From contig JBEKET010000013.1 of assembly GCA_050013695.1 (NCBI GenBank), positions 17,917 to 81,916 of the forward strand: a DNA stretch of 64,000 nt, read 5' to 3'. The notes beneath the pieces were generated by a model. The model was not told the DNA's origin, ran no database searches, and saw nothing but the letters and a program-made list of their open reading frames with translations. Of this stretch, positions 11,026 to 47,136 are shown piece after piece. Source of the stretch: Terracidiphilus sp. Lineage in GTDB: Bacteria > Acidobacteriota > Terriglobia > Terriglobales > Acidobacteriaceae. A program made the position numbers and the translations under genes. Position 1 is the first letter of the stretch. Each line of letters starts with the position of its first letter.

Positions 11026-11796
11026 TCAGTCTCCAATTCCCAATCCTTTCTCAAGAGGAATCACATCGTGATTGCGAATGTCTCGCGCGGGTTTGAGAAC
11101 GTGAGAAGAATTCGTGCGGTCCCAGCGTCTCATCGCCGTTTGCAGCAGAAAGCGCAGGTCGGAGAGGGGCGTGGCCTCGGCCATGTAGCGCTCATCGAGG
11201 TTTTGCTTCAGAGGGAGGAGGACATCGCGGCAGTAGTCTTCCAATTTGCCTTCAGGGATTCCGGCCAGGAAGACTTCCTCCTGGGCAAACGCGATGGTTG
11301 CCGCACCCGTAATCCCCGGCCGGCAACTTGACACCCTGGTCAGCTGTTCCGGGACTTTGGGTCGCGGTCCCACAAGGCTCATGTCACCCCGCATCACGTT
11401 GATGAATTGAGGCAACTCATCAAGTTTCCACCACCGCAGGAACCTGCCTGGATTGGTAATTGCCGGATCGTTGATAGTTGTAATCAGGGTTCGTCTCTCG
11501 CTGGAGAGATGCATGGTTCTGAACTTGTAGATTGTGAAAGAAATTCCGTTGCGTCCCACTCTTTTTTGCCGGAACAGAACCGGCCCTCTTGAGCTGATTC
11601 GAACTGCAATGGCGACGATCAGAAATAGTGGCAACAAAATCGGCAGCATCGCAAACACCAGCACAAGGTCAAAGACACGCTTTGCAGGAGACTGCACCCA
11701 TGCGCTGAGGCGCTCCGGCTTCGAGCGATCAACAACAATTTCTGTTGAAGGCTCGGGTCCAAGCACGGGATGCAGAACATTCTGGGCATCGCTCAA
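11026..11796 (-). CDS. Bacterial sugar transferase (priming/phosphoglycosyl transferase, WcaJ/PglC-type catalytic domain)
   Basis: AKRVFDL, one TM, GPVLFRQKRVG, KFRTM, KLDELPQFINVMRGDMSLVGPRP, RPGITG. Probable TTG start 11796 after GGAGG. Confidence 0.9.
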   Translation of the reverse strand: MSDAQNVLHPVLGPEPSTEIVVDRSKPERLSAWVQSPAKRVFDLVLVFAMLPILLPLFLIVAIAVRISSRGPVLFRQKRVGRNGISFTIYKFRTMHLSSERRTLITTINDPAITNPGRFLRWWKLDELPQFINVMRGDMSLVGPRPKVPEQLTRVSSCRPGITGAATIAFAQEEVFLAGIPEGKLEDYCRDVLLPLKQNLDERYMAEATPLSDLRFLLQTAMRRWDRTNSSHVLKPARDIRNHDVIPLEKGLGIGD

Positions 11797-11894
11797 GCGC
11801 ACCTCCCATATTGCTTTAGAAAACATCGTTTGCAACAGCCAGTACGGGCGCCCGTTGCTTGCGGCCTGCATTCGGTTTCGAGGCACTCAGAGAA

Positions 11895-12197
11895 TCAGGG
11901 ATTCAAGAAACGCAGAATTGCCTTTTCATCCTGTTCGCTGAGCGATGCGCGTACCCGCATGTGGCGCACGACGGTGCCTGAGATCCGCGGCGAGAAACCT
12001 TGTGGCGCGTCATGACAGCGCGAACAATTTTGCTTGAATGCGCGTTCTCCCGGACTGGACTCAGCCGGCGACGAAGCCGGCTTTGATTGCGCCGGAGGCG
12101 TCTGACCGCTTGCCTTGGACGCGAGCGGCTGAGCGCAGAGCGGGAGAATGACTATGGCGCCGCCAAGACACGCGAGAAGTACCAAACTGCTCTTCAT
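11895..12197 (-). CDS. Small monohaem c-type cytochrome, secreted
   Basis: Signal peptide, CSRCH haem motif, downstream HM; ATGA overlap with upstream barrel gene. Confidence 0.85.
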   Translation of the reverse strand: MKSSLVLLACLGGAIVILPLCAQPLASKASGQTPPAQSKPASSPAESSPGERAFKQNCSRCHDAPQGFSPRISGTVVRHMRVRASLSEQDEKAILRFLNP

Positions 12198-13258
12198 TTG
12201 CCCCTCCATGCGGGAAAGAGAAACCGATAGACAATGCCTGTTTGCCAGATGTTTCTATCTCCCGACGAAGAGAACTCGCGGGAATAGCTGGTGTTGATTC
12301 GCACTTCATGGGGCAAACGGTAATCGAGACCGAAGTCCGCCTGCTCTGTATCCGCGCCCGGAAGCCCGTCGTTCGAATCGGGCCGCGAGCGAAATGTTTG
12401 CTGCATGCGAAAGACAGGTTCGAATCTGCCCACAAAACTCTCTTCCCCTTTGAATCGGGATAGGCGGTAATCGGCTTCGATCCAGTACCCGCCCGCATGA
12501 GCACCCCTCGCAAACTCTGAACGCAGCCTGAGCGCGGTGTTTGCCGGTTCCCACCAGACGTGTGCACCCTCAAAGTTTTCGTGAACATTCTGAAGTTGCC
12601 GTCCGTAGGAGGCGCCGACCTCGAATCGGGCAGTAGGGAAGTAAAGGCTCGCTTGCCCGCCGCTGGCTCGCTCAGCTGTGAACTGCTGATTCGTACTGGC
12701 TGCAGAGAAATAGACAGCGTAGTTGGCGGACACATGGTCTGTCGCAAACGCCGATCCGCGCAGCATGCCTCCAACGCTCGACGCGGTTTCCATTGTTCCC
12801 AGGCTGAAAATCAACGGCACGTCTTGAAAATTGCCGATCCAGAGCGGAGTCAAGCGTTCGTTGTACGTGCCGAACGGTGTGAGAAAATCGCCGGCCACAA
12901 CCGTGACATGCTTTGAAGCGAGAAAGTCCCCCTGGAGATATGTCAGTCCCAGGAACAGGTCGCCCTTGTAACCCGGCTGTCCTCCGCCCTTGGGAAAGAA
13001 CGGGTCGAGAATAATGGCGCGGCTCTCAACCAGGATGTGATCCCCGATCGGTGCGGCGAGCACGGGTGAAACTACAGGTATGTAGGTTGTGTTTCCTCCG
13101 TTCGTACTGGTAACAAATCCGACGCCACCAGAGATAAGAGGAACGTTCTGACCCTGACTGTCCTGGGCAGCCGACCCCATCGATGCCATGCAAAACGCCA
13201 GGACCGCCGGAATAGCGTGCCTGGCCAGACTGTGTCGAGACGCTGCAGCAATCAACAT
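12194..13258 (-). CDS. Outer-membrane beta-barrel (porin-like) protein
   Basis: Signal peptide, alternating beta-strand pattern, aromatic C-terminus (GIVYRFLFP). Start uncertain (13258 ATG or 13282). Confidence 0.6.
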   Translation of the reverse strand: MLIAAASRHSLARHAIPAVLAFCMASMGSAAQDSQGQNVPLISGGVGFVTSTNGGNTTYIPVVSPVLAAPIGDHILVESRAIILDPFFPKGGGQPGYKGDLFLGLTYLQGDFLASKHVTVVAGDFLTPFGTYNERLTPLWIGNFQDVPLIFSLGTMETASSVGGMLRGSAFATDHVSANYAVYFSAASTNQQFTAERASGGQASLYFPTARFEVGASYGRQLQNVHENFEGAHVWWEPANTALRLRSEFARGAHAGGYWIEADYRLSRFKGEESFVGRFEPVFRMQQTFRSRPDSNDGLPGADTEQADFGLDYRLPHEVRINTSYSREFSSSGDRNIWQTGIVYRFLFPAWRGK

Positions 13259-13290
13259 GGACTTAGATTCGGCCGATTCCACAATCGATG

Positions 13291-13328
13291 TGTCATGAGA
13301 GCGTCTTGCGAATGTCAGCGCATTGTCA
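13291..13328 (+). promoter_or_regulatory. 11-bp-phased TGTCA array A (OmpR/PhoB-type direct repeats)
   Basis: TGTCA 13291, CGTCT 13302, TGTCA 13313, TGTCA 13324; lies just upstream of the minus-strand barrel/cytochrome operon. Confidence 0.7.
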
Positions 13329-13417
13329 CTTGTGATTGGCGCAGGTCACACATGCTGTCCATCCGTGCTTAAGCGCATGGAGTGCCACGCTGGTACGAGG
13401 CCTGGATTTACTGAGCG

Positions 13418-13455
13418 AGACAAAGTCATGACAATCTCCTGACACAGAGGTGACA
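13418..13455 (-). promoter_or_regulatory. 11-bp-phased TGACA array B
   Basis: AGACA 13418, TGACA 13429, 13440, 13451 on +; putative -10 TAGGCT at 13476-13481, 20 bp downstream. Confidence 0.8.
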
Positions 13456-13563
13456 GCTCGTTTGAATTCCCGGCCTAGGCTCAACAGCATGTAACAGGAC
13501 AAGCGCGAGGGCGTGCGGAGTAGCGCAAATCCCGGGCTACCTCTACAAACGCACAGGAGCAAT

Positions 13564-13929
13564 ATGACGAAGTCCATCGTAGTTTTCTTTGTTCTTGCCG
13601 GCATTTTTTCTCCGGCCCGATTCCTTCTGTCGGAGTATCCAACTGACGCCGCTCCCAAGCGCGTCGAGATCACAGCTAAACGATTTGCTTTCGAACCGGC
13701 CAGCATTGAACTCCAGAAGGGAGTGCCGGTGATTCTCGTTTTGAAAAGCGTCGATGTTCCACACGGCCTTCGCTTTCGCGAGCTGAATGTCGATGTAAAA
13801 GCTCCGAAAGGCGGGAGCGGAGAAGTGCAATTCACTCCGGATAAGGACGGCGATTTTGTGGGTCACTGTTCGGTCTTCTGCGGGTCAGGTCACGGGTCAA
13901 TGTCCATGACGATTCATGTGATCGGATAG
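13564..13929 (+). CDS. Stand-alone secreted cupredoxin with binuclear CuA motif (COX2-like soluble domain)
   Basis: DVPHG His plus C-SVF-C-GSG-H-GS-M (CxxxCxxxHxxM). ATG 13564 after AGGAG; N-terminal signal/anchor. Confidence 0.85.
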   Translation: MTKSIVVFFVLAGIFSPARFLLSEYPTDAAPKRVEITAKRFAFEPASIELQKGVPVILVLKSVDVPHGLRFRELNVDVKAPKGGSGEVQFTPDKDGDFVGHCSVFCGSGHGSMSMTIHVIG

Positions 13930-13931
13930 CA

Positions 13932-14426
13932 ATGCGACGCTTCATGATCATCGCCGCGACTGTTTTTTCGGTAGCTGCGCTGGTGTACTGTGCACTTTTT
14001 TTCGATGGGTGCAAGGCGAAGGCCCCCTCCAAACTCGAAACACGCGTGGTGACTTTGGCTAAACATCAATTCTTCATCGGGAACAAGTCGCAGAGAAATC
14101 CGCTGGCAGTTTCGCCGCAGGTAATCGCGGATGGAAAGGAGGCCTTCTCGCACTATTGTGTGGCTTGCCACGGGATGGATGGCCAAAACACAGGCGTGCC
14201 ATTCGCCGATCGCATGGCTCCGCCGGTGCCATCTCTGGCTTCGCCGGATGTGCAGAGGTACAGCGACGGCCAATTGAAATGGGTGATCGATTACGGTATT
14301 TGGCCTTCAGGAATGCCGGGCTCGAAGGGAACCCTGAGCGACGACGAAATCTGGTCGATCGTCGTCTATCTGCGTCATCTGCCTCCGCCTGGCAGCGTTG
14401 GCGAACCGGAAATGTACAGTCATTGA
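13932..14426 (+). CDS. Membrane-anchored monohaem cytochrome c
   Basis: N-terminal TM, CVACH motif, distal SGMPG Met; starts 2 bp after the CuA gene stop. Confidence 0.85.
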   Translation: MRRFMIIAATVFSVAALVYCALFFDGCKAKAPSKLETRVVTLAKHQFFIGNKSQRNPLAVSPQVIADGKEAFSHYCVACHGMDGQNTGVPFADRMAPPVPSLASPDVQRYSDGQLKWVIDYGIWPSGMPGSKGTLSDDEIWSIVVYLRHLPPPGSVGEPEMYSH

Positions 14427-14431
14427 TTCCT

Positions 14432-15700
14432 ATGAACGTTCTTAAGACTCAATCCGGAGATCGACAGCGGCCCGCTCCGCGCAGGCTGAAGGAAGCGGTC
14501 CTCGCCAGTTTTCGATTTTCTTCCGGCGACGTCACCAATCAATTTCGAAACTATTCACTGAACGATTGGCAGGCGATCCTGGTCTGGCTGGATATCAGCG
14601 GAATGGCTTTGTATTTGCTCGACCGCGTACGGGAGTTGAAGATCGAAGGCAGCGTTCCCGTGCCAATTCGCGAACGCATGCAGTTGAACCTCGAGCGAAA
14701 TCGGGAGCGGACAGCAGCCCTCCTGAGTCATGCAAAGGATGTTGCGAATCGGTTTAAGCAAGCCGGGATTCCCTTTGCGCTGCTGAAGGGAATCACGCTC
14801 ACGCCGGATTCCGTACCCGAGCCGGCACTGCGGTGGCAAACCGACCTTGACTTCCTGGTTGGCGGATCGGATGCGGAAGCCGCAAGTGAGATTCTGCGAA
14901 GCCTCGGCTACACCCTGAACGCAACAAGCGGACGCACGATGGAATTCAGGTCCGGCTCCTCCGGCAAATGGGACCTCGCAAATCTTTATCGGGCGGACAT
15001 CCAGCGATCAATTGAGTTGCATTGTCTGCCGCGTCGTGACGGATCGCAAGACCGTCTGGCGCGCGCGAGCGGCAGGCTATTCGACGGAACAGAGATACCG
15101 GCGCTCTCCGCGGCGGACACTTTTGTGCAGCAGGCCTTGCACTTGATGAAGCATCTGTGCGGGGAGCATACGCGCCTCTCCTGGGTGCTTGAATTCACGC
15201 GGCATCTTCGGTTACGGCAACACGATCACGCATTTTGGAAGGATGTGAGGGCGATTGCAAAGACCGAACCTCAAGCCGGCCTTGCAATAGCGATGTCTGT
15301 TTGGCTCGCGTCCGAAATGTTTGGGTTGAACCTGCCGAGCGCTGTCGATCCATGGGCATCAGATCAAATCCCAGATGGGGTCATCGTCTGGTTGCAGCGC
15401 TATGCCCGTGAACTACTCCTTTCAGATTCGCACGCAAGCAAGCTCTATCTCCTGCTTCGCCGCCAGTTGCCCAACAGGCCCGATGTGAAAGGCACTGCCA
15501 GATTGATGATCCCACTGTGCCTGCCGGCCAGAATTACCGAGCCGGTGCCGGGCGAGACACTGACGGATCGCTTGACCCGCTACCGAATAGAAGCGAGCCA
15601 CAGTTGGCGGCGCCTGTGCTTTCACTTGTTCGAAGGAATTCGGCTCGGTATCGAAACCTTGTGCTGGGAATGGAGAACGCCGAAGGTGCAACAGCGATGA
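14432..15700 (+). CDS. Nucleotidyltransferase-family protein (NTP_transf_5-like)
   Basis: IPFALLKGI...LRWQTDLDFLV (pol-beta-like DxD) and IELH. ATG 14432; ATGA overlap with next gene. Confidence 0.75.
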   Translation: MNVLKTQSGDRQRPAPRRLKEAVLASFRFSSGDVTNQFRNYSLNDWQAILVWLDISGMALYLLDRVRELKIEGSVPVPIRERMQLNLERNRERTAALLSHAKDVANRFKQAGIPFALLKGITLTPDSVPEPALRWQTDLDFLVGGSDAEAASEILRSLGYTLNATSGRTMEFRSGSSGKWDLANLYRADIQRSIELHCLPRRDGSQDRLARASGRLFDGTEIPALSAADTFVQQALHLMKHLCGEHTRLSWVLEFTRHLRLRQHDHAFWKDVRAIAKTEPQAGLAIAMSVWLASEMFGLNLPSAVDPWASDQIPDGVIVWLQRYARELLLSDSHASKLYLLLRRQLPNRPDVKGTARLMIPLCLPARITEPVPGETLTDRLTRYRIEASHSWRRLCFHLFEGIRLGIETLCWEWRTPKVQQR

Positions 15701-18687
15701 TCTTACGCAGAACGAGAAACGTGCTTCGGGTCGTGGCTTTCCCAATCTCCAATGCAGTTGTTTGCCTGGCAATGCTCTGTCTTGCGCCCTCCGTCGCAGC
15801 GCAGACGCAACCCGACCCCACGGTGCAAACCATACCCAACACCAGCGTGCAGGCTCAATCGGACGGCATGTCTGTTTCGCAGCCTGGACCGGGGATGAGC
15901 ATACCTGACAATTCGACGGGGCTCAACTCCTTGGAGAAGCCCACAGAAGATCCACGCAACGTGCTTGGTGCACCTCAGATCATTGCCATTGCACAGCAGA
16001 ACCCCGATGTAATTCTCGAACTCAAGTCCCTGGTGGCCGACCTGGCGCAGGCAAGAGGGATTCCATCACAGGCGGATGGAATTACCGATGATCAGCTTTT
16101 TAGCCAGATCGCCAGAGACAAAGTGTTGCGCGCAAGCATCACTCATTTGCTTTTGGCGCGGGGATATATCTCGGAAGAAGACATTGAGGTTGCGTCGCAG
16201 GAGAACGCGGACGAGAACGACAATCGGGCCGGGTTCGGGGCCCGTGACAAAAGGACGGATGTTGGTTTTGATAATCGCCTGAAGAATCCAGACACCGCGA
16301 ATGTGGCACGGGGGAATGAAGATTTAGCAACTCTTCCGCAATTCGACGATCAGCAATCGCCTTCAAGAACTCGTATCGCAGACAAGCACCAGGAACCAAA
16401 GGTTCAGCCGAACATCACAGATGAGCCGAAGTCGCTTCGCCGGGATGCGCCTTACAATCTGCTTTCGCTCAGGGATCTTTACACTCAGATTCCGGATTCG
16501 CCGGAGCAACTGAAGCGCTTCGGCGCGGAAGTGTTTACTCATCGCGAGACAGCCGTTGACAACTATCGTTCGTCTTCCGCGGTGAATGCAATGCCGCTCG
16601 ACGTTCCGCTCGGTCCGGATTACGTACTGGGGCCGGGAGATGAACTCAGTATCAGCTTGTGGGGCGGGGTATCCGAAAGCTTTACTCGTGCCATTAATCG
16701 CGAAGGAGCCATTTTGCTGCCGGAAGCGGGGCAGATTCAAGTAGCTGGGCTCACGCTGGGAAATGCGCAGGCCGCTATTGGCAATGCTCTGCAGCCTCAG
16801 TTTCGCGACGCGCACGTGGCCGTCACGCTGGCTCGCCTGCGCACCATCAGGATCTATGTGATAGGGGACGTGCAACGTCCTGGCGCATATGACATCAGTT
16901 CACTCGCATCACCGTTGAGCGCGCTCTATGCCGCGGGAGGGCCGACTGCAATCGGTTCGCTGCGCGTAATGCACCACACGCGCAACGGGAATTCGATTGG
17001 TGATATTGATCTCTACGACTTTCTTCTCCATGGAGTTCGGAATGCGGATGATCATCTGCAGGGCGGCGACACTCTTCTCGTTCCGCCGGCAGGGCCGCAA
17101 ATCGCATTCTATGGCGCGGTGAAACGCCCGGCGATTTATGAACTTCGCGATGAAAAGACCCTAGCGGCGGGTCTTGAAGATGCCGGAGGGTTTACCGTTG
17201 CCGCGGAACTGAGCCACATCACGATCGAACGCATCGTGGCCAACCAACACCGCGAAACCATTCCTGTGCAAGCCCCCGCATCCATTGGTCAAGCGAACGA
17301 AGAGAGTAACTTCGCAAATGTGGAATTGAGGGACGGCGATCGCGTTCGGGTTGGCACCGTGCTGCCTTCCAACGAGCGCGTGGTGTATCTCCAGGGACAC
17401 GTGGGCCGCCCCGGCAAGCTGGCTTATCGCGATGGATTGCATCTCGCCGATGTCTTGAAGAGTTATCGCGACTTACTTCCGGAACCGGCAGCAAAGGGAG
17501 AAATTGTCAGGCTTATAGCTCCCGACCTTCACCCGGAAACGATCACATTCAACCTTCCCGACGTGTTGATTGGAAACTCAAATCCATCTCTGCAGCCGTT
17601 CGACACCATCCGGGTTTTCGGCAGGTATGAGCGGGACTCTCCCAACGTAACTATCCAGGGCGAAGTGCAGCATCCGGGCTCCTACCCCATGTTCGACGGT
17701 ATGACTGCTGCTCAATTGGTGCGCGCTGCCGGTGGTTTCAAGCGGGACGCATCGCTCCAGGATGCGGATCTGATCAGCTATCACGTGGTGAACGACTCAG
17801 GCGTCAACATTGAGCGCCGTACTCTCTCGATTGGAGCCGCGGTCCTTCAGAACGATGCGCAGGCCGATTCAGCTCTTCAGCCAGGCGATGTGCTGACCAT
17901 CCATCAACTCACAGGGTGGAACGACATTGGCTCATCCATATTGATCCAGGGTGAAGTTGCGCATCCGGGGAGTTATGGATTCACAGAGGGCGAGCATTTG
18001 AGCGATGTTTTGAGACGCGCTGGAGGGTTTCGCGCCACTGCGTATCCGGAGGGCGCGGTTCTGACTCGCCCAGAAGTTCGCGTGCTTGAAGAAAAGAGCC
18101 GCGAGGAGCTGATTCGTCAGATCGAGACCAGTTCAGCCGCTGCCCGCATGTCTCCTACGATGGCAGCGGGCGATCAAGCGGCAACCCTGCAGCTGATTCA
18201 GCAGCAGCAGGACCAGGTGCTTTCGCGCCTGCGGAGTCAGCCGCCAAGCGGGCGGCTCGTGATTCACATCGACGGATCAATCGATCAATGGGCGGGCACT
18301 GAGGCTGATATTGAAGTGCGGAAGGGCGATGTGTTGCGCATTCCCAAGCGCCCTGGGTTTGTGCTGATCAGCGGCCAGGTGTACAACGCGTCAGCCATAA
18401 CGTTTAGTGCGGGAAAGACTGCCGGGTGGTATCTGGAGCGTGCCGGAGGAGCCACCTCGATCGCGAATCGCAAGGAGATATTTGTCATTCGCGCCAATGG
18501 TTCCGTGGTTGGTCGCCGTTCCGGAGAAGGCTATGGCCAAAATGTTTTGTCGACCAAGCTCGACCCCGGCGATGTGATTGTGGTGCCGCAGAAGATAGTC
18601 GGAACTTCAGTGGTCTGGAGAAACATTCTTGGTGCGGGGCAGATTGCGGCATCGCTTGCGATTGCTGCGGCTGTTGCGGGTCTTTAG
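15697..18687 (+). CDS. Polysaccharide export protein (OPX/Wza-like) with multiple SLBB domains
   Basis: DYVLGPGDELSISLWG export domain, repeated V.GEV..PG.Y SLBB units, LQPGDVL, C-terminal amphipathic helix. Start 15697 from ATGA coupling. Confidence 0.9.
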   Translation: MILRRTRNVLRVVAFPISNAVVCLAMLCLAPSVAAQTQPDPTVQTIPNTSVQAQSDGMSVSQPGPGMSIPDNSTGLNSLEKPTEDPRNVLGAPQIIAIAQQNPDVILELKSLVADLAQARGIPSQADGITDDQLFSQIARDKVLRASITHLLLARGYISEEDIEVASQENADENDNRAGFGARDKRTDVGFDNRLKNPDTANVARGNEDLATLPQFDDQQSPSRTRIADKHQEPKVQPNITDEPKSLRRDAPYNLLSLRDLYTQIPDSPEQLKRFGAEVFTHRETAVDNYRSSSAVNAMPLDVPLGPDYVLGPGDELSISLWGGVSESFTRAINREGAILLPEAGQIQVAGLTLGNAQAAIGNALQPQFRDAHVAVTLARLRTIRIYVIGDVQRPGAYDISSLASPLSALYAAGGPTAIGSLRVMHHTRNGNSIGDIDLYDFLLHGVRNADDHLQGGDTLLVPPAGPQIAFYGAVKRPAIYELRDEKTLAAGLEDAGGFTVAAELSHITIERIVANQHRETIPVQAPASIGQANEESNFANVELRDGDRVRVGTVLPSNERVVYLQGHVGRPGKLAYRDGLHLADVLKSYRDLLPEPAAKGEIVRLIAPDLHPETITFNLPDVLIGNSNPSLQPFDTIRVFGRYERDSPNVTIQGEVQHPGSYPMFDGMTAAQLVRAAGGFKRDASLQDADLISYHVVNDSGVNIERRTLSIGAAVLQNDAQADSALQPGDVLTIHQLTGWNDIGSSILIQGEVAHPGSYGFTEGEHLSDVLRRAGGFRATAYPEGAVLTRPEVRVLEEKSREELIRQIETSSAAARMSPTMAAGDQAATLQLIQQQQDQVLSRLRSQPPSGRLVIHIDGSIDQWAGTEADIEVRKGDVLRIPKRPGFVLISGQVYNASAITFSAGKTAGWYLERAGGATSIANRKEIFVIRANGSVVGRRSGEGYGQNVLSTKLDPGDVIVVPQKIVGTSVVWRNILGAGQIAASLAIAAAVAGL

Positions 18688-18694
18688 GAGCGGC

Positions 18695-20029: not shown

Positions 20030-20157
20030 ACCCTTCGATCTCTTGCTTCCGCTTTGGAGCATCACCTTGATCAATTCTTATCTCGGCCAATTAAGACCGA
20101 GTCTGAAGCACAACTTGAACCAGCAACACCGTTCCGCAACGTAAGGAGGGTCCGCAC

Positions 20158-21348: not shown

Positions 21349-21357
21349 TAGGGAAAT

Positions 21358-21373
21358 TGTCATTGCATTGTCA
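21358..21373 (+). promoter_or_regulatory. Tandem TGTCA box C upstream of the response regulator (putative autoregulatory site)
   Basis: ATTGTCATTGC-ATTGTCATTTT: TGTCA at 21358 and 21369, about 50 bp upstream of the ATG. Confidence 0.7.
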
Positions 21374-21424
21374 TTTTCGCCCAGGATTGAAGGGCCAGCA
21401 TGCATTACGGAGGAAAATGGAACC

Positions 21425-22162: not shown

Positions 22163-22167
22163 TTGAG

Positions 22168-26260: not shown

Positions 26261-27182
26261 TCGAAGAGGATTGGTTGGATTCCCACGCCACAGTCGGCGA
26301 ATTGGTTGGAAATAGGCCGACGTTTTCGCAATCTGCGAGACTCGTCGGTAGGCGATAAACCTTCAATCCAGTCAGTTGCAAGGCGATGTGCCACAGGAAA
26401 GCCGCATTGCTGACGTTGCGGCGCCATAGACGCTTCGGATCCTGCAGCAGCCGGTGCAGCCAATGGAATCCCATCTTCTTGACCCACGGAGCACAATCTC
26501 TGACTCGCCCAGTGTGAAAATCAAATGCGGCGCCCACTCCGAGCATCAGGCGCGTCTCCAGGCGCGGCAGCATCCTGCGCATGAAGAGGTCCTGTCTCGG
26601 TGCGCCGATTCCTACCCAGATGATGTCCGGTTTGCACGCCCTGATGGTCTGCGCAAGATCACTCTCTTCCGCAGCGGTCAACTCGCGAAAAGGTGGTGTG
26701 AAACTGCCGGCAATGCGCGTCCATGGAAATTGCCAAAGCATATTCGCGGCGAGTTCGCCTGCAACGCCATCTTTTCCCCCATAAAAGAAATGCCGATAGT
26801 CTGCGAATTCTTTCCGGCTGAACATTTCGTACATCAGTGCGGGGCCCGTGACCGCCTCCATCGAAACATGTTTCTGAAGCCGGCCGACCCAAACCGTCGG
26901 GGTACCGTCCGGTATCGCAATCGCAGCTTCGGCGAATGTGCGCGCCACATCCGGATTGCGCCGAGCTGAAAGAACCCCATTGACGTCAATGGCGCACACG
27001 TAGCCCTTCTTACCGGATCGGAGAATTCGCTTCACGCGCGAAAGCGCCACCTCCAGATTCAGCGCGTCAACAGCAACGCCGAGCACGTTGGCACAGGGGC
27101 CACGGAAGGAAGACACTCGCTCCGTGCCCGGATCTTCAGCGCCCAACTTGAGCCCAGCGGCGCTATGCGACGTCAGGCTCAT
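26166..27182 (-). CDS. WecB/TagA/CpsF-family glycosyltransferase (GT26)
   Basis: IPDGTPTVW, HFFYGG, PDIIWVGIGAPRQD, GVGAAFDF, RLLQDPKRLWRR. Start 27182 (ATGA overlap with flippase). Confidence 0.9.
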   Translation of the reverse strand: MSLTSHSAAGLKLGAEDPGTERVSSFRGPCANVLGVAVDALNLEVALSRVKRILRSGKKGYVCAIDVNGVLSARRNPDVARTFAEAAIAIPDGTPTVWVGRLQKHVSMEAVTGPALMYEMFSRKEFADYRHFFYGGKDGVAGELAANMLWQFPWTRIAGSFTPPFRELTAAEESDLAQTIRACKPDIIWVGIGAPRQDLFMRRMLPRLETRLMLGVGAAFDFHTGRVRDCAPWVKKMGFHWLHRLLQDPKRLWRRNVSNAAFLWHIALQLTGLKVYRLPTSLADCENVGLFPTNSPTVAWESNQSSSISNRALQAAHTVGQICSDDQAAHAKGRARQA

Positions 27183-28528
27183 TGTGCCTCCTTGTAGAGC
27201 GCCGCTGAAAATGCAGAGTAAGTGCGTTCTTTGGCACGACCGGTGAGCAACACCAGGAGCGGTATGTAGACCAGGCAAGTGATTGGCCCATAGAGCATGC
27301 GGCTCCATGCCATTCCTTGCAGGCCATAGTGCCTCGCAAGCCAACCCATTGATAAGGTCATGAGCGCACCACCTGCCACGGTGAAACACGTCAATATCTT
27401 CGGTCTGCCAAGTGCCAGCATGGAATAGGACCCTGTAACTCCAAGGCCCGCAAATGCTGTGCTCCAAACAATGATTGGGAGAAGCGGAGCGCACCTCTGC
27501 GCAAGTTCAATCCCTCCCCACCTGTGAAGGACTGCCGGACCGAATGCCATCACGGCCGCAGAGCCAAGGACCACAATCAGCACGTTGGCGCAAAACACTA
27601 ACAGGATCGTCCGCCGCACCGCGGCCCGGTCATGGAGCGCGTGTTGAACTGAGACGCGCGGAAAGAGGAAGTGCAATCCCGCCGCGGCCAACCCGTAGAT
27701 CGGCTGCGAAAGTTGCACGCACAGGGAATATGCGGTCACGGCGGCCGCTCCGAAAACGACCCCGGCAATAAGCCTGTCAACCTGTCCGAATACCAAGCCG
27801 GAGACCGCTTGAATCCATGCAAACACGCCGAAATGCAATAGTGCCCGAGTTGTCTCGCGATCAAGAGCCGGCAACAGGTTGTCTGCACTCAACAGTGCGC
27901 GAAGTTGCGCAATCTGGAGCCACACACCAACAGTCGATACCACAACAGTTACTGCCAGAACACTGGCCACCGTGTGGGTGACAAACGGCAGCGCCGCTGC
28001 TCCGGCCAGGCTCAGAAGGCGCGCAATTGCGCTGATCTTAACGGCGCTTCCATAGCGCTCATAGGCGCGCTGAGTGCTGACGCAAACAGTCTCAATTGCG
28101 CGCACAGGAATGAGCAGGCATGCGATGCGGAGACTCCAAAGGCAATCGGCCCGCATTCCTGAAGTTCCGCTTACAAGCTTCGTTGTCGCGAAGGGCGCGA
28201 GAAACCAAGCCACTAGCGCCAGTGCGCAGCCGAGAAAAAGATGGATGGCCATGCTGCTTCGCACCGCGCGGATCACGTTCCGGAAATTGCCGGTCGCTCG
28301 CTGCATGGCTACGATGCGGATGTTTGCGTCACCAAACCCCGATGCAACAATTGCTCCCGTGCTGATGGTTGAAACAGCAATCATCCATACGCCATATCGA
28401 TCGGTCCCCAAACCCCTCAGAGCAAGTGGAGCAATGGCAAGCATTCCGAGCGGGTACGCCACGTAGTCCAGCACTCCGTAAATGGCATTCGAGATATGGG
28501 TTTTCAGGTTTGCTGCGTGTTGGCTCAA
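27179..28528 (-). CDS. Wzx-like oligosaccharide flippase (MOP superfamily)
   Basis: Many TMs; LGTDRYGVW, LLHFG.FAW, GQVDRLIAG, VTAYS patterns. TTG start. Confidence 0.85.
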   Translation of the reverse strand: MSQHAANLKTHISNAIYGVLDYVAYPLGMLAIAPLALRGLGTDRYGVWMIAVSTISTGAIVASGFGDANIRIVAMQRATGNFRNVIRAVRSSMAIHLFLGCALALVAWFLAPFATTKLVSGTSGMRADCLWSLRIACLLIPVRAIETVCVSTQRAYERYGSAVKISAIARLLSLAGAAALPFVTHTVASVLAVTVVVSTVGVWLQIAQLRALLSADNLLPALDRETTRALLHFGVFAWIQAVSGLVFGQVDRLIAGVVFGAAAVTAYSLCVQLSQPIYGLAAAGLHFLFPRVSVQHALHDRAAVRRTILLVFCANVLIVVLGSAAVMAFGPAVLHRWGGIELAQRCAPLLPIIVWSTAFAGLGVTGSYSMLALGRPKILTCFTVAGGALMTLSMGWLARHYGLQGMAWSRMLYGPITCLVYIPLLVLLTGRAKERTYSAFSAALYKEAQ

Positions 28529-28576
28529 GCGTATTCATCCTTAGACTCTGACAGTACAAAGAGTGCGTCGAATGCG

Positions 28577-28614
28577 TGTCAGGACGTAGTCAAATGAATG
28601 TCATCTGTTTGTCA
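28577..28614 (+). promoter_or_regulatory. 11-bp-phased TGTCA array D upstream of the flippase
   Basis: TGTCA 28577, AGTCA 28588, TGTCA 28599, TGTCA 28610; putative minus-strand -10 TACTGT at 28556-28551, 20 bp away. Confidence 0.8.
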
Positions 28615-28631
28615 TTCTGGAAACCAGCCGG

Positions 28632-29960
28632 CTATTCACGTGACAGATCTGCTCGGTCAGTGCGAGGTTCGAGTCGATGCCTCGCCCACAAACGCGACCT
28701 GGGCATCGGCTCCCGGTGTTGTGGTAATGAAAGAAAGAGCAGGGCGGCAAGGAGTGCAATTACGGCGTTTCCAGCGATGACCGCCGTATAACCGAATTGA
28801 ACGATGCAACTCCCAGTGAGCGCAGCTGTACCAGCCTGGCAGAGCGCTCCGGAGAGATTCTGAACGGCGGAAGCTGTGCTGCGCTCTTCCTCGGGAATAT
28901 GCTCCATCAGGTAGCGATAGATGCCTGGGCCGCACATCCATTGCGCTCCATTGAATGCCAAAAAGCTGGCGACACTCAACGGAACCGTCCTCGACGCGGC
29001 GAGCAGAAGAAGAAGTGCGGCCGTCATCATTTGCGCCAGCGATACTCCCTTGAGTGTTCCGAGCCGCCGATACAAAAGAGGAGTTGACAGCACAGCGGCA
29101 AATTGAAGAAGCTGCGAGACGGAAAATACCACTCCCACCCGGCTGAGGGAGAGCCCAAGAGTTTGCTGCAGGTAGACGGCTCCGAAAATTGTGAAGGATC
29201 CCGTTACGACATTCCAGAGGATGAAGGGCGGCAGGAAGCGTTTAAGAAACGGGTGGAACATGCGCAGCCCATGTGTAACGCTCGCGGGCTTTGCATCGCG
29301 CGTCAGATTTGCAAGCGGCCACGCGCCGAGCATTACGGCGCCACAAGCGCAAAGCAGCACAACGCGAATTCCTGCGACCGGGGAAGTCCCTGCACTACTC
29401 GTTTGAAGAAGGCGAGGAAGATAGCCGCCGGCCAAGCCGGCCAGCGATCCCATGCCGATTCCAGTTGCAAAGACAATGCTGAAACCGGAAGCACGGTTCT
29501 GCTCATTGGTGTATTTGGCCACCGCGGGTGAAAAACAAATCGGCCAGAAGCAAAGAGCAAGGCCCGTCAAAAACGCGAGACCGATCTGGGCCGGAGTCCA
29601 GAGTGAGACTACTCGCAGGCCGCAGATCAACGGCCCGCCAAGAAATGAAATGAGCAGCGGCCTTCGGAATCCACGCCGCCGTACAAGAATCATGGCGGGG
29701 ATTGTTCCGACCACATTTCCCAGCGTCATGGACGCCAAAATTTGTCCAATGACCCGTTCGTTGAAATGGAGATCGGTCAGGTAAAGATTGAAGAGAAAGA
29801 GGAATAAACCAAAACCAAAATCAAAGAAAAACGCTGCCGCGAAAAACTTCCAGAAATCTGCTGAGTACCGGCGCATCCACGCAGGGGCGATCCTCATCCA
29901 TCGCGATTGTCCGCCTGGCTGCGCGTGCTGATCCTGCTCGCAGGCTTCAGTCATCAGCAT
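28632..29960 (-). CDS. MFS transporter
   Basis: About 12 TMs; loop motifs VRRRGFRRPL and YRRLGTLK; start overlaps kinase stop by 7 nt. Confidence 0.85.
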   Translation of the reverse strand: MLMTEACEQDQHAQPGGQSRWMRIAPAWMRRYSADFWKFFAAAFFFDFGFGLFLFLFNLYLTDLHFNERVIGQILASMTLGNVVGTIPAMILVRRRGFRRPLLISFLGGPLICGLRVVSLWTPAQIGLAFLTGLALCFWPICFSPAVAKYTNEQNRASGFSIVFATGIGMGSLAGLAGGYLPRLLQTSSAGTSPVAGIRVVLLCACGAVMLGAWPLANLTRDAKPASVTHGLRMFHPFLKRFLPPFILWNVVTGSFTIFGAVYLQQTLGLSLSRVGVVFSVSQLLQFAAVLSTPLLYRRLGTLKGVSLAQMMTAALLLLLAASRTVPLSVASFLAFNGAQWMCGPGIYRYLMEHIPEEERSTASAVQNLSGALCQAGTAALTGSCIVQFGYTAVIAGNAVIALLAALLFLSLPQHREPMPRSRLWARHRLEPRTDRADLSRE

Positions 29961-31021
29961 CCCTCGTGCACTAATTCGCGGAGCCTCTCGACCGCCCAGT
30001 CAAGATCCGTATAGCGCAGCTCGAATACACCTCCTTCGAGTAGCCGGTCAAACATGCGTGCCTGGCGATTGCAAAGTTCCGGTACCGAGCTTGCGCGTTG
30101 GAGCATGTAAAGCCTGGCCACTTCAACAGGAAACGGAACTAACTCGTGCCGGTCAACATTGCGATTGAGAAAGACGACGTGCTTTATATGCGCGGTTGAC
30201 GAGGTCTTGATACTCGGAGCAGATGCGGTTGCAAACTCGATCGAAGGCTTGCCAACCTCTGCACGCTTCATCACGGGCCTTCCGCGCAATTCCGGAAAGA
30301 GGCTTTCAGAAGAAGATCGAAACCGAACCATGCTGGAGTCGCCCACGATCAATCGGTCATCCCTCCCGTCGACCAGAAAACTCCCATCGTCGGTGATGTA
30401 GGTCCATCCCGTGCGCGCGCAAGCATACGCGAGAGTTGATTTTCCCGCGCCTGAATCTCCACAAAACAACAGGCCGGCACCATCCAATTCCACTGAGGCT
30501 GCATGAATTCCCGACGCATAACCATGAACAAGCTGTCCCATGATCAATGACATCAGAAATGCGAAGCGGAAGTAGGCAGGGTGGTCGAGCGTTGAGCGGG
30601 TCACCCAGATATTTGAGGTTGCATGAAGGTAATCCGAGACCGCAAAATTGTCGCCGTCCGCGATGTGAGTAGCCAGGAGTCCTCTCATGCGGGTCATTGG
30701 CATAGGTGGGCAGTCCCTCACACTTCCGCCCGTGACACCGATGCTCAGCCTGATCGGTTCAACATCAAATAGCTTCTGAAATCTGCCCATTCCCTCCGCC
30801 GCGATATCCAGAATCTGCCTGGAATTCGTGGATATGATCACAGGAAAGCCGAGTGGATAGAAGGTTCCCTTCAGGTTGTATTCGACGCGCGAGAGATACG
30901 GATCGCAAAACTCAATCGGCTCCGAGCGGCTCCATGCTTGCATGAGCTGCTCGGTCGTCAGCACATTAAATGTCTGAACCGGCCAGGTTTCCAGTGTGCT
31001 CTCAATGGTTTTCATTTTCAT
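29954..31021 (-). CDS. HPr-kinase-related P-loop kinase
   Basis: GIHAASV...LLFCGDSGAGKSTLAYAC...YITDD matches the HprK-like His / Walker A / Asp-Asp pattern; no HprK N-terminal domain recognised. Confidence 0.7.
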   Translation of the reverse strand: MKMKTIESTLETWPVQTFNVLTTEQLMQAWSRSEPIEFCDPYLSRVEYNLKGTFYPLGFPVIISTNSRQILDIAAEGMGRFQKLFDVEPIRLSIGVTGGSVRDCPPMPMTRMRGLLATHIADGDNFAVSDYLHATSNIWVTRSTLDHPAYFRFAFLMSLIMGQLVHGYASGIHAASVELDGAGLLFCGDSGAGKSTLAYACARTGWTYITDDGSFLVDGRDDRLIVGDSSMVRFRSSSESLFPELRGRPVMKRAEVGKPSIEFATASAPSIKTSSTAHIKHVVFLNRNVDRHELVPFPVEVARLYMLQRASSVPELCNRQARMFDRLLEGGVFELRYTDLDWAVERLRELVHEGC

Positions 31022-34000
31022 CAGAATTGGTATTTCAGCGCCACTTGAACGATGCGCGGGTTATTCGACTTCCCAGTGATCAAGCCAAATGGTGGACTGG
31101 AAGAACCTAAGATGGCCCCATTCCCCGGATTCGCAAAGTTTGGCCTGTTGGTCAGATTGAAGAACTCCGCGCGAAAGTGAACGCTCTGCGATTCAGTGAC
31201 GGGAACAGTTCTCTCCGCCGCCATATCCAGGTTGAACTGCCCCGGTCCGCGGACAATCCCCACGCCGCTGTTTCCGAAATCCGTATCGGCGGGGCCGGTG
31301 CCATACGGCGCTTCCGGTGCGGTGGTGATTGCGGCAGGGTTGAGATAGCCGTTGATCACGCGTGAATACAGAGAGCCGCTTGTGGTAATGCGCGAGCCGC
31401 TCAGTTGCGCGCGGTCTTCAAAGGGGTAGTTACCGTAGACCGCGCCGGCAGATTCATCGATCAAGGTAATGGGTGTTCCACTTTGCAGCACGAGGATTCC
31501 CGATGTCTGCCAGCCGGACTCAATTTGTCGAACCATGCTGCCCATCGAGCGAACGGAAGGCACGTCGTAATTGAAGCTGAGAACACCGCGATGCGTGCGA
31601 TCGAAATCGGTGAGCCCATATGCTTGCCGCGGGTTATGCTGATCGTTCGTCAACAGCCACAACTCGAATACCTGGTTTCCTGAGGAGCCGCTCGTCTCGT
31701 CGAGATTCTTCGACCATGTATAGCTGCCAAGAAACTGAAGGCCGTGGCTCAGACGTTTGGTCACGCTCGCCTGCAGCGAGTTGTAGTCCGAACTGTACGC
31801 CGTTTGGTAAACCAGAGAATCCGGTCCAATGCCCTGGTACGGAGCACGCTGAACAACATTCGCGACCGAGTTCGACGTCTCGCCGTACACGGGATTTGTA
31901 GGACTCGCCAACAGGCTCTGGTTAAACTCCGCGCCCCCGGCCACGTGAATGGAGCGCGTGCCCACGTATCCCACCTCGGCAAGATAATCGCGGAAGAAAG
32001 CAAACTGCGCATTCAGGTTATATTCCTCTGTATAGGGGTCCACGATATGCGTGGATATGCCGGTCACCGTCGGTCCGCCGCCGGGAATTCGCGGAATGAA
32101 GATCGGATAGCTCGACTGGCTCGGCAGCAGCGGGCTGAAGGGTTGCGCGAGTGTCGCTCCCGCGTTCTGCGATCCTTCATAAAACTGGCTTGTTGAAAAG
32201 GGCGGCTGCCCTACAAGGTTCTCAGCCAACCCGGCCGCCAAACGATCGAAGTAAATTCCGAATCCGCCACGTACAACCACTGTTGGTTTGTCTGTCAGGC
32301 GATAAGCAAAGCCCAATCGAGGAGAAACATCGTGGTGATCAGTCGGCCAAAGACCAGGCATGTGCGATTGAAGCACGCCTTGCGGAACCGTTCCGGAAAA
32401 GTTGGAAGCGACCACGAATCCGCTCAGACTGCCGGATGCAGGTGCGCTCAATGTCGCCAGGGTCGGGTCGAACGTAACCAGTCTGCCGTGAATCTCTGAT
32501 GGAGGACTGAATATCTCATAGCGCAGGCCGGCATTCACGGTGAGCTGCGGCGTCAGACGCACATCATCCTGAACGAAGCCGGCAAAGTCGGTATACCGCT
32601 CGTCCTTGCGGAACAATCCCGAACTGCCGTCACTGAAAGACACATTGCTCTCATCGTTTGGGCTGCCGTTCTGTGCCGCACTTTCACCCAGAAGAAAGTC
32701 GTTGAATGTGTTGATATCAAGTAGTCCACTAGCAGAATACGGCGCATTTACCATCACTTGATGGCGCTTTACCTCGCCCCCGAAACGGATGGAATGATTG
32801 TGTCGCGTGAGCGAAAGCATATCCTGCGCAATAAAGCTGTTTGTCCGCTGCGCTTGCGACGGAGTTCCGGCATCACCGATAGTGAACAACCCGTTCACGG
32901 TGATTCCAGGAGCGGCAATCCCCGCGCCCGACGTGCCTGTCGGAGATTGAGTGCCAATATCGGAAGCGAGGATTGGATTCGCCACAACTGCGACGCCGTC
33001 AAATCGCATGTATCCGGCGCGTGCCACGTTGATCATGTTTGAGTTCAACACATGAGTGTCCGCGACAACGGCCATCGCATTTTGATCCAGTTCATTCGTG
33101 CCCCACCCCGGAACATTGGCCGCGTTCGGAGAAAAGGCTTCGACTGTTGGCGCGCGAGAGTAGAAAAATCTCTCGGAGATTTCATTCTTGCTCGTCAGCG
33201 CGTGATCGATGTTGGCTGTGTACTGATCCTCGTTGTAGGTGGAAGGCGGAGCATACGTTGATTCGCCGACCGGTATCTGGCCTGCCGTTGCTCCGAGCAG
33301 GATCTGGGGACTTGGGATTGCGAATTGGCCGCTCGGCAACTTGAAATTCAACAAGCTCAATGCCACCGGATTGATATTCGATCCGTCACATGCCATCTGC
33401 GTACCGCCTGCGGAAGTTGGGTAGGCGCAGAATTGCGCGCCGAGAGTAGCGGCGGAACGGTCAGCGGTGAGCTGAGGCAATACGACGGTGGTCTCCGTTC
33501 CCTCGCCATTGCTCGAACGCAAACCCTGGTATGCGCCGAAGAAGAAAGTCTTGTCCTTGCGAATCGGACCGCCAACCGCAAATCCAAACTGATTCTGTTT
33601 CAAATCAGGGCGAGGCTGGTCGTCAAGCTTGGAAAAAAAGTCATTCGCATTAAGTGCGTCGTTGCGCAGAAACTCCCATACGGTGCCGTGCACATGATCT
33701 GTTCCGGTCTTGCTGATGACGTCGACATTCGCGCCGGTCCCTCGTCCGTAGGTCGCATCGTAGTTGCCGGTTTGCACTTTGAATTCCTGAATGGTGTCCG
33801 GCGCAGGAACTGCGACTCCCACTTCTTCGCCATCCGAGGCCGCGGAGTTCTGCGAAAGATTATTCGCGTCCACACCGTTGAACTGAATGTTGTTGGCGGT
33901 TGTCTTGCTGCCGTTCGATTCCACGTCCTGGGTTCCGCGTCCCAGTTCAGTCGCATCCGGCAGTCCCACCACAACCCCTGGCGAAAGCGACAGGATCTGT

Positions 34001-34467
34001 GTGAAGTTCCGGTTGGAAAGAGGAAGCGCCTCGATTGCTTTCTCATCAACCGCGCGCCCAAGAGATGAGCTCTGGGTGCTGGCAATTTCCGTGTCTGCAG
34101 TGACCGCGACACTCGTGTCAACAGTCGCCAGCTTAAGGTGAAACTCGATCGCGCTGGTCTCGCTGACGACTACCGGAATCGAGCGCAATTTGCTTTCCGC
34201 AAACCCATCCACCTTGACGGACGAGCGATATTCGCCGGGCGGCAACAGGGCGACAGTGAAGAGCCCTGTCCCATCGGTGATCACCGATCGAGACACATCG
34301 GTTGCTTCGTTCTCCACGGTCACTGAGACGTTGGGCACCGGTCGCCCCGAGGGATCGATTACCGATCCATGGATTGCTCCCGTGCCGGGGGCCTGACCCC
34401 AGACCAAAGCCACCCGCATCAATAACGGGACCAGGACGCAAGCTGCCCGCAATGAAATGTTGCGCAT
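31021..34467 (-). CDS. TonB-dependent receptor (Oar-like, N-terminal carboxypeptidase-regulatory-like domain)
   Basis: Signal peptide, GAIHGSVIDPSG, LPLSNRNF, IQEFKVQT..YDA.YGR, EFLRND, C-terminal PRIVQVALKYQF. Confidence 0.92.
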   Translation of the reverse strand: MRNISLRAACVLVPLLMRVALVWGQAPGTGAIHGSVIDPSGRPVPNVSVTVENEATDVSRSVITDGTGLFTVALLPPGEYRSSVKVDGFAESKLRSIPVVVSETSAIEFHLKLATVDTSVAVTADTEIASTQSSSLGRAVDEKAIEALPLSNRNFTQILSLSPGVVVGLPDATELGRGTQDVESNGSKTTANNIQFNGVDANNLSQNSAASDGEEVGVAVPAPDTIQEFKVQTGNYDATYGRGTGANVDVISKTGTDHVHGTVWEFLRNDALNANDFFSKLDDQPRPDLKQNQFGFAVGGPIRKDKTFFFGAYQGLRSSNGEGTETTVVLPQLTADRSAATLGAQFCAYPTSAGGTQMACDGSNINPVALSLLNFKLPSGQFAIPSPQILLGATAGQIPVGESTYAPPSTYNEDQYTANIDHALTSKNEISERFFYSRAPTVEAFSPNAANVPGWGTNELDQNAMAVVADTHVLNSNMINVARAGYMRFDGVAVVANPILASDIGTQSPTGTSGAGIAAPGITVNGLFTIGDAGTPSQAQRTNSFIAQDMLSLTRHNHSIRFGGEVKRHQVMVNAPYSASGLLDINTFNDFLLGESAAQNGSPNDESNVSFSDGSSGLFRKDERYTDFAGFVQDDVRLTPQLTVNAGLRYEIFSPPSEIHGRLVTFDPTLATLSAPASGSLSGFVVASNFSGTVPQGVLQSHMPGLWPTDHHDVSPRLGFAYRLTDKPTVVVRGGFGIYFDRLAAGLAENLVGQPPFSTSQFYEGSQNAGATLAQPFSPLLPSQSSYPIFIPRIPGGGPTVTGISTHIVDPYTEEYNLNAQFAFFRDYLAEVGYVGTRSIHVAGGAEFNQSLLASPTNPVYGETSNSVANVVQRAPYQGIGPDSLVYQTAYSSDYNSLQASVTKRLSHGLQFLGSYTWSKNLDETSGSSGNQVFELWLLTNDQHNPRQAYGLTDFDRTHRGVLSFNYDVPSVRSMGSMVRQIESGWQTSGILVLQSGTPITLIDESAGAVYGNYPFEDRAQLSGSRITTSGSLYSRVINGYLNPAAITTAPEAPYGTGPADTDFGNSGVGIVRGPGQFNLDMAAERTVPVTESQSVHFRAEFFNLTNRPNFANPGNGAILGSSSPPFGLITGKSNNPRIVQVALKYQF

Positions 34468-34532
34468 TTTCTTCGCCGCCTCACGTGGGGATATGACGCG
34501 GTTTCAGAATAGGAATGATTGGGTTGCTGACT

Positions 34533-34559
34533 TGTCAGCATCATGTCTTTCGATTGTCA
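34533..34559 (+). promoter_or_regulatory. 11-bp-phased TGTCA array E upstream of the TonB-dependent receptor
   Basis: TGTCA 34533, TGTCT 34544, TGTCA 34555; putative minus-strand -10 TATTCT at 34511-34506 (21 bp away); overlaps palindrome TGCTGAC-TT-GTCAGCA 34525-34540. Confidence 0.75.
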
Positions 34560-34760
34560 TTTGGAATCTGCGCCTTTAAGCAGCGGATTAATAACCGGAC
34601 CAGCTCGGCGCTTAAACCATAACGATCGGCGCCGCGCCCATCTCATCCAGTTCGTTCTGCGCTCTCCCGCACATCTATGCGGACTGCGCTCCAACTGCTG
34701 TGACTTACGTCCTAGTCCCGGGAGTGCGAGGCCAGCTAGGGTGGAGTGGAGAAGGACGCC

Positions 34761-47099: not shown

Positions 47100-47136
47100 A
47101 AGATTCTCGACTGGAAGTGAAAGTGGGTTGAAATCG

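Follow-up and report, generated by a model that had tools for sequence, protein, structure and literature searches.

A TGTCA operator in 11-bp phase and the PhoB-like two-component system that probably reads it in Acidobacteriaceae

Introduction

A stretch of 64,000 nucleotides (nt) from Terracidiphilus sp. (GenBank assembly GCA_050013695.1, contig JBEKET010000013.1, positions 17,917 to 81,916), called the window below, carries five intergenic arrays in which the pentamer TGTCA recurs at an exact period of 11 base pairs (bp). The arrays stand before genes for polysaccharide export, copper and haem proteins and a TonB receptor, and one of them precedes the gene of a response regulator. Which protein reads the arrays, and do the genes behind them form one regulon? 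An earlier note, drawn from the letters of the window, had attributed the arrays to the OmpR-family system encoded in their midst. Our analysis makes it likely that they are the operator of this OmpR/PhoB-family two-component system, encoded at 21425–24006. They probably mark a previously undescribed co-regulated gene set that joins polysaccharide export with copper and haem proteins.

The source of the DNA is an uncultured, Terracidiphilus-like bacterium of the Acidobacteriaceae, found in peat metagenomes. The Acidobacteriaceae rank with the most abundant bacteria of soil and peat, and no regulon or operator described for Acidobacteria or Acidobacteriaceae was found in the searchable literature.

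Results

The arrays in the window

Reading of the sequence placed all five arrays where the earlier note had put them:

Array 1, 13291..13328, minus strand: plus-strand slots TGTCA 13291, CGTCT 13302 (degenerate), TGTCA 13313 and TGTCA 13324; 18 of 20 letters.
Array 2, 13418..13455, plus strand: AGACA 13418, then TGACA 13429, 13440 and 13451; 19 of 20 letters.
Array 3 (class A), 21355..21378, plus strand: aaaTTGTCAttgcaTTGTCAtttt; two units, with TGTCA at 21358 and 21369.
Array 4, 28577..28614, minus strand: plus-strand slots TGTCA 28577, AGTCA 28588, TGTCA 28599 and TGTCA 28610; 19 of 20 letters.
Array 5, 34533..34559, minus strand: three plus-strand slots, TGTCA 34533, TGTCT 34544 and TGTCA 34555.

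The repeated unit is about gaTTGTCAt, and it is found at the exact 11-bp period in every promoter region of the cluster. Four arrays read TGACA along transcription, as the earlier note had it: array 1 toward the operon of a 354-residue protein, array 2 with the transcription of the cupredoxin operon, array 4 toward Wzx–WecG and array 5 toward the TonB-receptor operon. Array 3 alone reads TGTCA along transcription. Each array holds at least two 11-nt direct-repeat units with a TGTCA-type core, which is the make-up of a pho box.

The window contains 86 TGTCA/TGACA pentamers, and same-strand TGTCA pairs less than 60 bp apart are spaced only by 11 bp (five pairs), 22 bp (four), 33 bp (two) and 16 bp (one). 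The exact pattern TGTCA-N6-TGTCA occurs five times against 0.09 expected, and none of 100 dinucleotide-preserving shuffles reaches five; the comparison with chance that the earlier note had called for thus puts the arrays far above it. A scan for four slots with at least 16 of 20 letters returned solely 13291, 13418, 28577 and 34522/34533, and returned nothing from 30 shuffles. Neither scan of the window found anything array-like beyond 13.3–34.6 kb, in agreement with the note, which had seen no array outside 13–35 kb.

The genes behind the arrays

The region consists of five transcription units.

Target operon 1, 11026..13258, minus strand:
12194–13258, minus strand: 354-residue secreted protein of no known family, possibly an outer-membrane barrel.
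11895–12209, minus strand: 104-residue monohaem cytochrome c with a CSRCH motif.
11026–11886, minus strand: Bac_transf sugar transferase.

Target operon 2, 13564..21348, plus strand, six genes:
13564–13929, plus strand: CuA-type cupredoxin, motif HCSVFCGSGHGSM.
13932–14426, plus strand: cytochrome c.
14432–15700, plus strand: NTP_transf_5 nucleotidyltransferase.
15670–18687, plus strand: Wza-like exporter.
18695–20029, plus strand: Wzz.
20158–21348, plus strand: GT4 glycosyltransferase.

Regulator operon, 21425..26260, plus strand:
21425–22162, plus strand: OmpR-family response regulator.
22168–24006, plus strand: CHASE4-HAMP histidine kinase.
24003–25529, plus strand: 508-residue DcaP-like porin with an N-terminal coiled coil.
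25568–26260, plus strand: 230-residue protein with a type-1-copper-like cupredoxin domain (HNV...CNIHPEM) and a CarboxypepD_reg-like domain.

Target operon 3, 26166..28528, minus strand:
27179–28528, minus strand: Wzx flippase.
26166–27182, minus strand: WecG/TagA-family glycosyltransferase.

Target operon 4, 28632..34467, minus strand:
31021–34467, minus strand: TonB-dependent receptor.
29954–31021, minus strand: HprK-related kinase-like protein.
28632–29960, minus strand: MFS transporter.

Conservation of the arrays

A search of a genome collection with the regulator gave 80 loci (1.55 Mb; regulator 70–93% identical). Their labels are Acidobacteriaceae, Terriglobales or unplaced Acidobacteriota with one exception, L014, which is binned as Bryobacteraceae. 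Cultured carriers among them are T. gabretensis S55, strain ZG23-2, Occallatibacter savannae AB23 and Acidicapsa dinghuensis. Over the 80 loci a spacing of 11 bp is found for 239 same-strand TGTCA pairs, one of 22 bp for 188 and one of 33 bp for 70, and each other spacing for 0–7. With an array counted as two or more exact cores, 270 of 272 arrays adjoin genes of the system; per 100 kb this DNA has 22.7 arrays, and the other 329 kb, which flank it, have 0.61. Only two of the 272 lie inside mapped genes, though these make up 54% of the DNA. The cores are conserved and the spacers vary.

Gene order is highly variable, and the arrays stay with the same gene families through the rearrangements, which answers the earlier note's call for a look at orthologous loci. 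Arrays were found with the cupredoxin in 43 loci, the 354-residue protein in 36, the regulator in 34 (exact sites), the 104-residue cytochrome in 26, Wzx in 23 and NTP_transf_5 in 16; those of the cupredoxin, of Wzx and of the pair of 354-residue and 104-residue proteins stand upstream of the genes. Three further array-linked families are absent from the window: a 599-residue ABC exporter (37 loci), a PhyH-family dioxygenase (29) and a ribB-like DHBP synthase (26). For operon-internal genes (such as the kinase, Wzz, cytochrome c and GT4) array linkage is at background level.

The regulator, kinase, 508-residue and 230-residue genes stay together in nearly all loci; the kinase gene is present, and its model maps beside the regulator, in 79 of the 80, and the other two genes are present in 76. 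The regulator–kinase pair is the sole regulator that is always syntenic with the arrays. The conserved core comprises the regulator operon, the pair of CuA cupredoxin and cytochrome c, and the pair of 354-residue and 104-residue proteins. Of the earlier interpretation, the part that one operator ties the five transcription units together is supported: they share the arrays, which are conserved with their gene families. Membership varies for the polysaccharide genes, the TonB receptor, the kinase-like protein and the MFS transporter.

Distant versions of the system also carry the array. In L089 and L155, where the regulator is 52–56% identical, an array of three to four TTGTCA units stands directly upstream of the regulator gene (L089 2600–2800, L155 734–1209) and downstream of homologues of the MFS transporter, the HprK-like protein and the TonB receptor, on short contig pieces. 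They came from a reverse scan of metagenome contigs for three TTGTCA units, which gave at least 120 matches, mostly in unrelated DNA of low G+C content; the useful ones among the matches listed were these two and L110, a verrucomicrobial locus taken up in the Discussion.

No exact array was found within 10 kb in L022, L068 and L076, of which the first two retain a class A site that differs at one position; these three genomes may have their targets elsewhere. No acidobacterial replicon was found in a plasmid search with the regulator.

Geometry of the target promoters

The target promoters, called class B, have three to four units with TGACA cores along transcription, the third unit usually being degenerate. 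Each is followed at a fixed distance by a hexamer resembling the -10 element:

13265..13270, minus strand: GAATCT (nAnnnT), 20 nt past array 1, ending 6 nt before the ATG at 13258.
13476..13481, plus strand: TAGGCT, exactly 20 nt past array 2.
28551..28556, minus strand: TACTGT, 20 nt past array 4.
34506..34511, minus strand: TATTCT, 21 nt past array 5.

The gap of 20–21 bp to TAnnnT that the earlier note had read at three arrays is borne out at 20 (array 2), 20 (array 4) and 21 (array 5). Across the loci TAnnnT stands at offset 20 or 21 in 23 of 24 Wzx promoters, in 22 of 23 and 24 of 24 promoters of two cupredoxin-operon ortholog groups, and before the RibB-like gene (19/21), NTP_transf_5 (15/16) and the ABC exporter (17/17). 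It is exactly at offset 20 in 22/24 for Wzx and in 20/23 and 21/24 for the cupredoxin-operon groups. The ABC-exporter promoters have it at offset 21 in 14 of 17, as at array 5.

Because GAATCT ends only 6 nt before the start codon, the mRNA of the 354-residue protein is predicted from the layout to be leaderless; the same arrangement (nAnnnT at 20, 6 nt, ATG) is found in L004, L005, L008, L009, L011, L017 and L028. The slot expected for a -35 element, 17 nt upstream of the -10, reads ACAnnn and is not -35-like.

The E. coli pho box has its units along transcription, replaces the -35 element and lies about 10–11 nt before the -10. In the window four arrays out of five are instead reversed and stand 20–21 nt from the -10, as do the sites of every class B promoter in the 80 loci. 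Strict spacing between box and core promoter has also been reported for PhoB (PMC10294691).

The regulator's own promoter

Array 3 starts 10 bp past the stop codon of the GT4 gene and 52 bp before the ATG of the regulator. Its consensus over the loci is aAAtTGTCAtnnnATTGT(C/A)ATTTnT, two units reading TGTCA along transcription. In 79 of 80 loci the regulator gene is preceded by a site of this class A that matches at least 9 of 10 core letters; controls reach no more than 7 of 10. In half of the loci the second unit is TGTAATTT, which contains the -10-like TAATTT. No other conserved motif fit for the local regulator was found in its own promoter across the loci.

The regulator and its kinase

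The regulator has the domains of the OmpR/PhoB family, an N-terminal Response_reg (1.2e-24) and a C-terminal winged helix, Trans_reg_C (1.4e-25). The gene of its kinase, CHASE4-HAMP-HisKA-HATPase, starts 6 nt past its stop codon. The best NCBIfam match of the regulator is PhoB (TIGR02154) at 199.5 bits; since the cut-off is 296.2, the regulator is not a PhoB equivalog. RpaB comes second with 196 bits, below its 330-bit cut-off. The kinase, with a CHASE4 periplasmic domain and HAMP, is not of the PhoR type: no PhoR model appears among its best 25 NCBIfam matches, headed by AtoS at 127.7 bits against a cut-off of 646.

The DNA-binding domain alone is closest, among all PDB chains, to that of E. 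coli PhoB (3T72, 1QQI and 1GXP; E = 6e-19). In the 80 orthologs the recognition helix TTRTVDNQILKLRQKLE and the wing TIYGAGYKF hardly vary, every position but one in each being at least 98% conserved. Against E. coli PhoB and the verrucomicrobial PhoB-like protein, the regulator shows V197N, H198Q, R200L, R201K and R219Y, and we take these five residues of PhoB to touch DNA in the PhoB–DNA complex. In PhoB, Arg219 presumably reaches into the minor groove of an A/T-rich spacer; the array spacers are not A/T-rich, which the Tyr in place of Arg219 fits.

Other genes of the system

The 508-residue protein is cotranscribed with the regulator and the kinase, its start overlapping the stop codon of the kinase. 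Its AlphaFold2 model (mean pLDDT 62.5) shows an N-terminal coiled coil and a beta-barrel, with the coiled-coil porin DcaP (PDB 6eus) as the top structural match. All 120 relatives among the matches listed (at least 52% identical) are unnamed or hypothetical proteins, and the few organism labels are Terracidiphilus or Edaphobacter. The 354-residue protein was considered as a relative of this porin and rejected, no relatedness being detectable.

The HprK-related kinase-like protein (29954–31021) and NTP_transf_5 (14432–15700) are under one operator in the window, and in other loci the PhyH-family dioxygenase and the 599-residue ABC exporter (L025 5086–6885 and 16107–17213) are under the same one. 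This set resembles peptide- or glycan-tailoring genes. The ribB-like gene (L025 15061–15933 and 25 other loci) lies directly past the gene of the 230-residue protein, with a three-unit array and TAnnnT at offset 20. No flavin mononucleotide riboswitch was found before it by Rfam; the only match was V_AS9, antisense within the coding region, and a scan of the window and two other loci gave no other known RNA element.

In one genome a heavy-metal two-component system of the CopR/CusS type (L013 3915–6092) adjoins the pair of 354-residue and 104-residue proteins, a neighbour that may hint at a metal connection. Its regulator was rejected as a PhoB candidate, being of the CopR/CusR type.

Discussion

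How the system may work

The local regulator is favoured as the binder because the regulator–kinase pair is always syntenic with the arrays, because the regulator operon itself has the site in 79 of 80 loci, because the DNA-binding domain of the regulator is PhoB-like, and because the distant relatives carry the arrays too. The best reading of these sequence features is a PhoB-like paralogous system that would regulate its own operon and activate about five local operons.

The kinase would sense a periplasmic signal through its CHASE4 domain. The phosphorylated regulator would bind head to tail like PhoB, each 11-bp unit taking one molecule. At class B promoters two dimers could occupy the four units, the promoter-proximal core ending 20–21 nt before the -10. 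If the -10 element covers -12 to -7, the cores would lie at about -37/-33, -48/-44, -59/-55 and -70/-66. The bound regulator would most likely recruit RNA polymerase, that is, activate, because these promoters have no -35-like hexamer and their spacing to the -10 is rigid. At the class A promoter a two-unit site in the opposite, PhoB-like orientation would give feedback on regulator synthesis; its layout admits both positive and negative autoregulation.

As output, outer-membrane channels, a Wzx/Wzy-type pathway of polysaccharide export and small secreted copper and haem proteins would be expressed together, joined in other genomes by the ribB-like gene, the ABC exporter and the PhyH-family dioxygenase. 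From co-regulation and co-inheritance we infer that the linked genes may act as one system. That cupredoxins and cytochromes c occur together with porins, a riboflavin-precursor enzyme and capsule export points, as a speculation, to an envelope function in redox or metal chemistry.

A more specific and rather doubtful proposal is that a PhoB-derived paralogue has been re-used in the Acidobacteriaceae as the dedicated switch of an envelope module, a redox system coupled to capsule production. Such a redox system would be periplasmic or extracellular and would serve metal oxidation or reduction, or copper handling. Its module would comprise the coiled-coil porin, a second outer-membrane protein with its partner, a monohaem cytochrome c, the CuA- and type-1-copper-like cupredoxins, the riboflavin-precursor enzyme, the TonB receptor and the polysaccharide export pathway. 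It would be driven by the unusual reversed four-unit activator site with its fixed 20-nt gap to the -10.

Several points weigh against the local system as activator of these operons. Across the loci no -10 was found to keep a constant distance from the class A site, and autorepression through this site is possible, because the second unit TGTAATTT is itself -10-like in half of the loci. The 329 kb that served as background are all locus-adjacent DNA and less than a whole genome. Since the five substituted positions are those that we take to touch DNA, identity of the core motif with that of PhoB is not guaranteed. No RNA runs with this region were found, only DNA metagenomes from peat, bog and wetland containing it. 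The points that concern PhoB itself belong to the same side, and are given with the first alternative.

Alternative explanations

The alternative that survives best, though unlikely, takes the arrays for ordinary pho boxes. They would be bound by a canonical PhoB whose gene lies elsewhere, the cluster and the local system would belong to the phosphate-starvation regulon, and the local regulator would bind elsewhere. PhoB controls exopolysaccharide synthesis in Sinorhizobium meliloti, and the class A site has the PhoB orientation. The pho box consists of two 11-nt direct-repeat units with the core CTGTCAT in E. coli (PMC4415409), a core and period identical to those of the arrays. Three TTGTCA units at the 11-bp period also stand upstream of a PhoB/PhoR-like pair in L110 (3130–5182; PhoB by its Joint Genome Institute name, with a PnpS/PhoR-like kinase), so that the box is conserved across phyla. 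The L110 array suggests a classical pho box outside the Proteobacteria. The locus itself was rejected as an acidobacterial PhoB locus, being verrucomicrobial. An acidobacterial PhoB may well recognise similar DNA, because the core is that of the classical pho box and because of the L110 array.

What speaks against this alternative is the company the arrays keep. Among about 15 array-linked families there is no phosphate-uptake or phosphatase gene. Searches by tblastn found no PstS or PhoU homologue in the window or the 80 loci (E. coli queries) and no Pho genes with the PhoB/PhoR queries of L110; linkage to pstSCAB-phoU or phosphatase genes, which would mark a PhoB, is thus lacking there. Nearly all arrays in the 80 genomes (270 of 272) cluster around one two-component system that is not of the PhoR type, and this system's own promoter offers no alternative conserved motif for its regulator. 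The class B sites, reversed, of four units and 20 nt from the -10, are unlike PhoB promoters, nor are the array spacers A/T-rich.

Improbable to a greater degree is that the local regulator binds the arrays and represses the class B promoters by occluding the -35/UP region. A protein bound to the arrays, which span about -33 to -70, could stand in the way of polymerase, and PhoB-family proteins activate or repress according to site position (PMC10294691). The spacing to the -10, however, is rigid within 1 nt over at least six unrelated promoters in many genomes, as expected of an activator that touches polymerase and not of steric repression, and ACAnnn in place of a -35 element makes the promoters look activator-dependent.

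It is hardly credible that the binder is one of the two large one-component regulators that flank the cluster, fusions of an OmpR-type winged helix with a PD40 beta-propeller (Trans_reg_C-PD40, 8609–10846) or with TPR (Trans_reg_C-TPR, 36572–38935). Both have a suitable DNA-binding domain, yet they are not syntenic with the arrays in the 80 loci (one weak match of 27% identity, in L064), for which they were rejected, and their own promoters carry no array.

An origin as chance matches, mobile-repeat remnants or plain -35 elements, to which the presence of TGACA within the sigma-70 -35 consensus might point, is already refuted by the window statistics (five matches against 0.09 expected), by the 80-locus conservation of cores among varying spacers, and by a promoter geometry in which 20–21 nt is too long a gap for a -35 element and three to four phased copies would go unexplained.

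Significance and surroundings

If the local system is the reader of the arrays, it would give a well-defined, family-wide regulon to a phylum with almost no regulatory knowledge. Such a regulon is testable: it has a precise operator, predicted starts that include a leaderless one, a conserved four-gene sensor operon and a list of target families. Most of these families have no known function, and the cultured carriers make direct testing feasible. A general question is how a PhoB-like paralogue and a true PhoB avoid cross-talk if both read 11-bp TGTCA repeats.

The remainder of the window contains a 1522-residue hybrid histidine kinase at 39183–43751 (4HB_MCP sensor, several PAS, HisKA/HATPase, receiver and Hpt domains). 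A glycan-degradation cluster unrelated to the operator follows at 44662–52615 (GH3, a sugar MFS transporter, a GH10 xylanase, an alpha-L-fucosidase with F5/8 type C, and GH18). At 3552–5330 (plus strand) and 3567–5324 (minus strand) two open reading frames of about 590 residues overlap on opposite strands, the one on the plus strand having no Pfam match.

Comparison with known systems

PhoP regulons of Salmonella and M. tuberculosis use direct-repeat boxes that may face either way and that stand at several positions relative to the promoter; tandem dimers bind upstream of the -35 or overlap it. Compared at the family level, they differ from the present system in half-site sequence, signals and targets. 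In S. meliloti TGTCA-type boxes stand before the exopolysaccharide operons of the galactoglucan (EPS II) genes and act PhoB-dependently. There the regulator is a genuine PhoB and the condition phosphate limitation, whereas here the candidate is a separate, locally encoded system.

The cyanobacterial RpaB is like the regulator in sequence, as its second-best NCBIfam match. Its HLR1 element is a direct-repeat pair whose effect is reported to be set by position relative to the start site (bioRxiv 10.1101/443713). HLR1 consists of octamers 2 nt apart with a (G/T)TTACA core, unlike TGTCA at 11 bp here.

The closest likeness is to PhoB/PhoR and the pho box of E. coli (PDB 1GXP, 3T72), which share with the present system direct repeats of a TGTCA core at an 11-bp period. 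They also share an OmpR-family regulator, a two-unit box before the regulator's own operon in pho-box orientation, and strict spacing between box and promoter (PMC10294691, PMC4415409). The present regulator and kinase differ from them in the 199.5 bits against a cut-off of 296.2, the CHASE4-HAMP kinase and the five substitutions in recognition helix and wing. The sites differ in having three to four reversed units 20–21 nt from the -10 and no A/T-rich spacer, and the targets in including no phosphate genes. By these analogies the system would work like PhoB and other OmpR-family activators on tandem direct repeats, while it departs from PhoB itself in score, kinase and targets.

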